From sequence record NC_007825.1: a DNA stretch of 5,538 nt. One strand, 5' to 3'. This DNA comes from Escherichia phage ID52. Both the position numbers and the translations under genes were made by a program. The notes beneath the pieces were generated by a model. It was not told the DNA's origin, did not search any database, and was given only the letters and a program-made list of their open reading frames with translations. Positions 59 through 1,808 of this stretch are shown here, in pieces. Position 1 is the stretch's first letter. Each line of letters opens with the position of its first letter.

Positions 59-1723
59 ATGTTTAAAACTCATTCTGACTACTTCAATAAACCAAACATC
101 GACGCAATCAAACCACTCGTCGAAACTGCTGGTATGTCTGTTCTTACTCAGTCTCCAAACCTCCGTATCTGGAAACAGTGCAATACTCGTATCAAACTTC
201 TTGAAGAAATCCTTGCTCATTATACGAATGGTATTCGCCGTGATGATAATGGTGACTTCTGGATGAATCCAAACTCTCAACTCGCAACCACTATTGCCTA
301 TCGTGCCCACCAAAAAGGCCACAATCCTAAATTCAAACAATACCCAGAGTCGTTTACTCTGGATGACATTATTACTGGCAAACCAATCCCTCAAACCGCC
401 CCTGACGAATTACAACTCTCCGATGAAATCGGTGAAGACTACCGTCTTACAGTCCTCTCCATAATCGAAGAACTGCAAGAATGTTACGATGTGCTCGGAC
501 AACTTGATATTAATAACACTATAGACCACAAACCCCTTGGTAATACTCACTGGGACTTACTCTATGAAAAACCCGTATACAAACATTGGACTCAACTCGT
601 TTCAAAACGACCCCTTAAAGATATCCGCGCCGATTACAACTATGCAAAGGCGAAGGGTATTAAGGATGAATGCTCAAAAATCTTGGAGGAATCTACTATG
701 AAGTCCCGTCGTGGATTTACCGTCCAAAGATTGATGAATGCTATGCGTACAGCCCATACTCAGGGCTGGTATGTGGTATTCGACACTCTTACCCTAGCCG
801 ATGACCGCTTAAAGGATTTCTATGATAATCCCAATGCTCTTCGTGACTACTTCCGTGGTATTGGTCGTATGGTTCTTACTGCCGAGGGTCGCTCGGTGCA
901 TGAGTCATCTGCCGACTGCTATCAGTATTTTTGTGTGCCAGAGTATGGTACACAGCACGGTCGTCTACATTTCCACGCAGTGCATCTTATGCGCACACTT
1001 CCTTTGGGTTCTCTGGACCCTAACTTCGGTAAGTTGGTACGCACTAATCGGCAAATAAATAGCTTGCAAAACACGTGGCCTTATGGTTACTCTATGCCCA
1101 TCGCAGTCCGGTACTCCCAAGATGCTTTCTCTCGTGCTGGCTGGCTCTGGCCTGTGGATGCAAAGGGTGAACCCCTTAAAGCTACCTCGTATATGGCTGT
1201 AGGCTTCTACGTTGCTAAATACGTTAATAAAAAATCAGATATTGACATGGCCGCAAAAGGCCTAGGGAATAAAGAATGGAACAATTCGCTCAAAACCAAA
1301 ATCAACCTCATACCCAAGAAGGTGTTCAGAATCCGAATGTCCCGCAACTTCGGAATGAAGCTACTCTCAATGGCTCACCTGTCAGCGGAAACTCTGATGG
1401 AACTGACCCAAGTGGGCTACGACGTGACCCCGTTCAACAACATCTTGAAGCAGAACGCCAAGAAAGAGCTCAAATCGAGGCTGGCAAAGAAATCTGTCGC
1501 AGACGTTTTGGAGGCGCAACCTGTGACGACCAATCTGCTAAAATTCATGCGCAATTTGACCCGAACAATCGGAGTGTCCAGCCTACAGAGTTTTATCGCT
1601 TCAATGACCACGAAATTATCAAGTACGGATATTTCTGATGAAACCAAAACTTACGTTGCTGATGCAGGAATTGCTGTTGCTAACTTACGAATTAAATCGA
1701 AGTGGACTGCTGGTGGAAAATGA
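59..1723 (+). CDS. A: Replication initiation protein A (HUH rolling-circle endonuclease)
   Basis: ORF 32..1723; preferred start is ATG 59, preceded by GGAGG (48-52) at 6-nt spacing, giving 554 aa. Strong recalled similarity to phiX174/G4 protein A along the whole length, including HFH (nt 968-976) and [10 protein letters not shown] with catalytic tyrosines (codons 1208-1210 and 1220-1222). Contains the origin sequence at 500-529. Confidence 0.92.
500..529 (+). other. Viral (+) strand rolling-circle origin; protein A nick site between G506 and A507
   Basis: Exact match to the conserved 30-nt Microviridae origin as I recall it, CAACTTGATATTAATAACACTATAGACCAC, located inside gene A and encoding ...[10 protein letters not shown]... 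Confidence 0.88.
698..1723 (+). CDS. A*: Protein A* (in-frame internal restart within A, C-terminal 341 aa)
   Basis: In-frame ATG at 698 (STM-KSRRGF...) at the position homologous to the phiX174 A* start; predicted 341 aa, the same length as phiX174 A*. Whether it is expressed cannot be read from sequence. Confidence 0.65.
1276..1638 (+). CDS. B: Internal scaffolding protein B (overprinted inside A in a different frame)
   Basis: 120-aa [11 protein letters not shown]...[10 protein letters not shown]...[15 protein letters not shown], matching recalled phiX174/G4 protein B, including the [10 protein letters not shown] motif and aromatic C-terminus. Stop TGA 1636-1638 overlaps the K start. Confidence 0.9.
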
Positions 1724-1808
1724 GGAAATTCAATCTCAACTTAAAAAACTCGAGGTCGTCTTACTTCGCAACCTTTCGCCATCATCTCAACGTGCTGGCA
1801 AAGACTGA
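1638..1808 (+). CDS. K: Protein K (small non-essential protein overlapping the end of A and start of C)
   Basis: Hand translation from ATG 1638 gives 56 aa: [56 protein letters not shown], stop TGA 1806-1808. Closely resembles phiX174 K (also 56 aa, ...[20 protein letters not shown]...). Below the length cutoff of the supplied ORF track. Confidence 0.85.

Follow-up and report, generated by a model that had tools for sequence, protein, structure and literature searches.

The sequence studied here is that of Escherichia phage ID52 (NC_007825.1), 5,538 nt read as one strand with positions numbered 5' to 3', and this whole stretch is referred to below as the window. The ORF list yields the complete one-strand gene set of a phiX174/G4-type microvirus, and the organisation is that of a Gequatrovirus, with A(A*,B)-K-C-D(E)-J-F-G-H on one strand of about 5.5 kb. 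The closest records are those of Shigella phage vB_1081 (98.6% identity over the full length) and coliphage NC6 (98.2%). Across the G4-species records identity is 93-98.6% over 100% of the length, the figure for the other members of species Gequatrovirus G4 being 93%. The features that surround gene K are collected in Table 1. The mechanical ORF list begins gene A at the ATG at 32, and all related records annotate 59; no gene start in the genome has stronger Shine-Dalgarno pairing than the ATG at 59 (GGAGG, -9.5 kcal/mol).

Table 1. Genes, junctions and conserved blocks in and around gene K of phage ID52 (window positions).
Feature	Position	Strand	Description
Gene A (A* from 698, same frame)	59..1723	+	overlaps K over its final 86 nt (stop included)
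Gene B, internal scaffolding protein	1276..1638	+	lies within A; the K ATG takes its first base from the B stop; Pfam PF02304 Phage_B, E 2e-49
TGATG	1636..1640	+	B stop 1636-1638 and K start 1638-1640 with one shared base; A read through in another frame
Gene K	1638..1808	+	56 codons plus TGA; ATG 1638-1640, TGA 1806-1808; third frame relative to A and B/C
Conserved block in A/K overlap	1686..1713	+	28 nt; one variable site (1691) across 19 G4- and phiX-like genomes
ATGA	1720..1723	+	C start 1720-1722 overlaps A/A* stop 1721-1723; crossed by K codons 28-29
Gene C, 87 aa	1720..1983	+	overlaps K over its initial 89 nt; Pfam PF12025 Phage_C, E 2e-38
Conserved block in C/K overlap	1759..1784	+	K residues about 41-49, LLRNLSPS; holds nearly all of the drop in synonymous variation of C

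A, B/C and K are read in three different frames. The first-pass annotation had placed the K ORF, the B stop and the ATGA of A and C at the positions given in Table 1, and direct reading shows that these coordinates are exact. It had also stated that every nucleotide from 1638 to 1808 is coding in two frames. This holds as long as stop codons are counted, since K is paired with A over 1638-1723 (86 nt) and with C over 1720-1808 (89 nt). A further claim was that 1636-1640 and 1720-1723 are both read in three frames at once, and here the outcome depends on the junction. In TGATG, nt 1638 is the only base that belongs to codons of all three frames, namely the B stop, the A Asp codon GAT (1637-1639) and K Met1, and the B codon concerned is a stop. 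The rest of the motif is read in two frames (1636-1637 in the B stop and A, 1639-1640 in A and K). In ATGA, by contrast, all four bases are covered three times. Gene A ends with Lys AAA (1718-1720) followed by TGA (1721-1723), so nt 1720 is at once position 3 of the A Lys codon, position 1 of C Met1 and position 2 of K Asn28, whereas bases 1721-1723 are shared by the A stop, C and K. In other words, if sense codons alone are counted, the second three-frame stretch narrows to nt 1720.

The identity of gene K is clear. It has the position of protein K in the Bullavirinae, with its ATG on the B stop and a third frame that runs across the point where A ends and C starts. Its product matches Pfam PF12283 (Protein_K) over residues 1-52 of 56 (E 1.2e-16; 61.1 bits against a cutoff of 25) and PHROG 1713 (E 5e-32). 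Eight G4-species records (NC6, G4, ID12, NC10, ID8, NC2, ID11, and WA3) carry depositor annotation of K at 1638..1808, together with B at 1276..1638, A to 1723 and C from 1720; in the WA2 record K is annotated as 1638..1790. The gpK proteins of NC6 (AAZ49360.1), ID12 (AAZ49338.1), ID8 (AAZ49265.1) and ID52 (AAZ49036.1) are identical to the 56-aa K of the window, and NC6, ID12 and ID8 also share its K coordinates, its TGATG and ATGA junctions and its 86-nt and 89-nt overlaps. In the panel alignment, which starts at 1608, NC6 DNA matches the window to the K stop at 1808 and the first difference appears at about 1815. However, the two genomes differ elsewhere, for example in gene C, which is 9 nt longer in the window.

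Since the late 1970s, textbook accounts of phiX174 and G4 have included gene K and the way it overlaps B, A and C. The overlap in the window is already known, ordinary for this virus group and annotated in identical or near-identical genomes. Its discovery value is small, and its use is that of a positive control in which the coordinates and the interpretation of a first reading proved accurate. The recent automated annotations of vB_1081, Lilleen and Lilleven list only six to nine genes and omit K, B, E, J and A*. Nevertheless, the K ORF is intact in the DNA of all three.

What if the K frame is open by chance or for historical reasons, with no selected protein behind it? In this scenario the conservation of the region would reflect nucleotide signals such as the C ribosome-binding site, an internal promoter, or a Rho-dependent terminator or rut site. 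The chance of an open frame was estimated by keeping the A and C proteins and both junctions fixed and redrawing synonymous codons from the genome's own usage in 200,000 trials. In 5.4% of trials all 56 codons of the K frame remained open, a frequency that lends an accidental origin some credit, and in 2.7% the open frame also had an ATG at 1638. The evidence from the single sequence is moderate. The comparative evidence is strong.

Among related Bullavirinae, all 42 loci read, which represent three genera and go down to about 40% K identity, have an intact K ORF with T(G/A)ATG at its start. Such persistence argues against an accident, especially as it includes the alpha3-like phages, in which K identity is about 40% and the A-C junction is different. 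Within a panel of 19 G4- and phiX-like sequences, the window included, TGATG and ATGA are invariant (19/19), and K is 56 aa long in the 18 other genomes except Lilleen (54 aa). Loci found through the C protein are not biased towards an intact K, and the six obtained in this way have the same K layout. Four of them are IMG/VR contigs already in the panel; the other two, L040 (56 aa) and L041 (54 aa), are new G4-like contigs from metagenomes, and both keep the ATGA. They were the only new G4-like loci in the metagenome scan, which otherwise returned mostly phiX174 spike-in sequence. One contig, FUFK010037421.1 (327,964 nt; L042-L105), contains dozens of matches to a phiX174-type C gene, 76% identical to the query and spaced at multiples of 5386 nt, and in the one copy that was read the K region is that of phiX174. 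The pattern suggests that the phiX174 sequencing spike-in was assembled into one contig as a concatemer, and that this is no real long genome.

Comparison with the two other genera shows which parts of the arrangement are general. Gene K of phiX174 (Sinsheimervirus; positions 51-221) encodes 56 aa and has the same TGATG and ATGA junctions and overlap lengths as the window. The proteins are 57-64% identical, with LLxxLSPS and a 20-residue core conserved. In the alpha3-like phages (Alphatrevirus: NC35, WA13, Lilleven and related contigs) K likewise starts on the B stop and reaches from the last part of A into the first part of C. The start motif in these 18 loci is TGATG, or TAATG in two of them, and the protein shares the N-terminal motif TLLMQELxLLxxEL at about 40% identity. 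However, 26 nt that carry a strong AGGAG separate the A stop from the C start in these phages. They therefore lack the second three-frame point, which is a feature of the G4 and phiX groups and not of the whole subfamily. K is also shorter in the alpha3-like phages (53 aa, except for 60 and 62 aa in two contigs), and its overlap with C is only 50 nt. The description of this arrangement as classic microvirus compression thus fits the G4 and phiX174 clades, and it is intact here, but it does not extend to the alpha3-like phages as far as the ATGA junction is concerned.

The protein is not uniformly conserved. Thirteen K positions are invariant across the three genera, and most of these are leucines in the N-terminal half. 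Within the panel, 19 of the first 28 residues are invariant compared with 8 of the last 28. The C-terminus also varies in length: Lilleen and L041 have 54 aa, and the alpha3-like contigs L037 and L107 have 62 and 60 aa. In WA2 a CTC to CTT change, synonymous in C, creates a TAA at K codon 51 (1788-1790) and leaves a K of 50 aa. C1788T would give the window the same truncation, and it is one of ten single-base changes that would put a stop in K while staying synonymous in A or C; stops nearer the K start would take away the conserved core. The last residues of K are dispensable in nature, and its tail is free to vary or be truncated. The selected part of K is therefore roughly residues 1-49.

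How is K translated? Its anti-Shine-Dalgarno pairing is the weakest of 11 genes (-3.3 kcal/mol, from GGA only), and that of C is also weak (-4.9 kcal/mol), compared with -8 to -9.5 kcal/mol for A, A* and J. Because both the K and C starts have poor Shine-Dalgarno pairing, termination-reinitiation coupling is suggested. Judging by the geometry and the weak pairing, ribosomes that finish B may reinitiate at the overlapping K AUG (UGAUG), and those that finish A or A* may reinitiate at the C AUG (AUGA). One relevant observation comes from decompressed phiX174, which makes less C protein once the A/C/K junction has been pulled apart, and its authors name the altered junction as a possible cause (10.1101/2020.06.10.143693).

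The very weak pairing upstream of 1638 could also be taken as a sign that K is real but initiates mainly at its second in-frame ATG (1662-1664, Met9), which would make the first three-frame point non-functional. This ATG is present in the window and in several relatives. However, it is not conserved, codon 9 being Leu or Lys in G4, NC2, ID11, NC10, Lilleen and the phiX-like phages, whereas every genome read has the ATG at the B stop. Main initiation at Met9 is therefore highly unlikely.

If K is under selection as a protein, synonymous change in A and C should be restricted where they overlap it, and such a reduction was the check that the first-pass annotation had proposed. Synonymous divergence was measured as Nei-Gojobori pS on a codon alignment of the 19 G4- and phiX-like genomes. 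For A, pS is 0.391 in A-only sequence, 0.284 in the A/B overlap and 0.113 in the 27 codons under K; pairwise pS values of this kind are not phylogenetically independent. The reduction under K is 3.5-fold. None of 379 contiguous A-only windows of 27 codons is as low (minimum 0.224), and neither is any of 20,000 random samples. The check therefore succeeds for the A half. The effect is also present when only the seven divergent genomes are used (0.164 under K compared with 0.523).

One clue to the source of this constraint is its phase. Third positions of A codons are variable at 26% of sites under K compared with 77% elsewhere (Fisher p 1e-7). First positions of A codons, which are the wobble positions of K, are as variable as usual (41% under K and 35% elsewhere). 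In the A/K half, the pattern of change follows the codon phase of K, and this is hard to reconcile with an accidentally open frame. The most conserved part of the A/K overlap is the block at 1686-1713, which encodes K ...ELNRSGLL, and pS is 0.032 for 1664-1708. For a K-region query (1500-1990), identity to phiX-like records otherwise reaches only about 76%. The block ends in GGTGGA, a Shine-Dalgarno-like motif for C. This motif before the C ATG probably contributes to conservation at the A end. However, the signal remains without those codons: pS of A under K is still 0.127 when the five codons next to the C start are left out, which again speaks against a frame maintained by nucleotide signals.

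The outcome for the C half is mixed. Gene C has a pS of 0.30 under K compared with 0.49 downstream, and in sliding windows the value rises from about 0.27 to about 0.6 just past the K stop. Among the seven divergent genomes the difference is weak and not significant (0.488 under K compared with 0.650; p 0.25, pooled null). Nearly all of the reduction lies in the block at 1759-1784, and without it the C/K overlap (0.607 compared with 0.650) is indistinguishable from C-only sequence. The predicted reduction is thus present within this block but absent outside it. This is a point in favor of an accidental frame, as the block matches the location of a proposed phiX174 promoter. Taken over both halves, the data indicate purifying selection on a conserved K ORF whose C-terminal third is weakly constrained. 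As the sequence comparison shows, selection on K falls mainly on residues about 1-49, its N-terminal and central part.

Can nucleotide-level signals explain the conservation? An RNA structure was considered as its cause and rejected: folding of 1600-1830 gives no unusual stability (z +0.49 relative to shuffles), and an Rfam search of the whole window gave no match at E<=1. A scan of 1400-2100 found no sigma-70 consensus promoter or intrinsic terminator within 1638-1808. Outside K, the same scan returned two promoter-like sites (1814-1841 and 1907-1936) and, at 2074, a weak terminator-like hairpin. The site at 1907-1936 lies inside gene C (codons about 63-73) and is near-consensus for sigma-70 (TTGACA, 18 nt, TATTAT; 11/12). 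It is at the place of the phiX174 pD promoter, where synonymous C mutations were detrimental in phiX174 mutagenesis.

Two signals proposed for phiX174 do fall in or near the region. [quoted passage not shown] Because of the homology of the promoter candidate to 1755-1794, part of the conservation of 1759-1784 could be regulatory. More generally, this block and the last A codons coincide with the candidate promoter, T_C and the C ribosome-binding site, and conservation there may therefore be partly unrelated to K. The mapping of T_C near the B/K region is a second point on the side of an accidental frame.

The K protein itself is predicted to be small and helical. A single-sequence AlphaFold2 model has helices at 3-22 and 29-46 with a mean pLDDT of 86.6, so that residues about 1-49 are predicted to form a two-helix hairpin. 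A PDB search with the K profile returned no solved relative at E<=1. The experimental facts all belong to phiX174 (non-essentiality, an effect on burst size, detection by mass spectrometry and tolerance of nonsense mutations), and K of the window is known from its sequence. K of phiX174 modulates burst size according to Gillam 1985, as cited in later papers. Mass spectrometry has detected all 11 phiX174 proteins, among them K (PMC8125068). As to its origin, K is regarded as a gene that arose de novo by overprinting (PMC8227390). In saturation mutagenesis of phiX174, K nonsense and missense variants carried no cost in fitness (bioRxiv 10.64898/2026.07.25.740675). If it resembles its phiX174 homologue, K of the window would be a non-essential protein of the kind reported to raise burst size.

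This leaves a puzzle: K is conserved throughout a subfamily, but laboratory assays find its loss neutral. Perhaps the nearly invariant blocks at 1686-1713 and 1759-1784 carry a third, non-coding layer in addition to the two coding ones (an internal promoter, a Rho-dependent attenuator of K/C or a signal for C coupling) and K is conditionally required in natural hosts despite its neutrality in the laboratory. This combination is a speculative and rather unlikely one, and neither of its parts would be specific to this genome. As for a frame that is open by accident, the neutrality of K nonsense variants in the phiX174 assay is what such a frame would predict, but the phiX174 K protein has been detected by mass spectrometry and the window K matches a curated Pfam family, and with the evidence above this makes the idea extremely improbable.

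Very probably, then, the window is a complete G4-like Bullavirinae genome in which 1638-1808 is gene K, encoding a 56-residue overprinted accessory protein with likely stop-start coupling at its junctions. K is read in a frame that neither A nor C uses and runs across the AUGA at which A and A* end and C initiates, and selection on K residues about 1-49 would freeze the wobble positions of the last 27 codons of A. The earlier reading of an intact gene K overprinted on the A/C junction is borne out by the Pfam Protein_K match, by the GenBank annotation of relatives and by the A/K constraint.

Overlap in this genome is not limited to gene K. A further three-frame point lies at 2441-2445, where the D stop TAA (2441-2443) shares a base with the J ATG (2443-2445) while E is read through. 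The overlap between J and the lysis gene E (2163-2474; 103 aa) is 32 nt long. The records of NC6, ID12 and NC10 carry annotation of the same arrangement, and E and J also overlap in ID8, WA3 and WA2. In G4, NC2 and ID11, E is shorter and ends before J. Gene C varies as well, with 87 aa here compared with 84 aa in other G4-species genomes, the result of a 9-nt difference at about 1945-1983. The C protein of those genomes ends in ...STSSTDANHKGN, and the C-terminus encoded in the window is different. The C protein of the window is an exact match to gpC of phage ID52.
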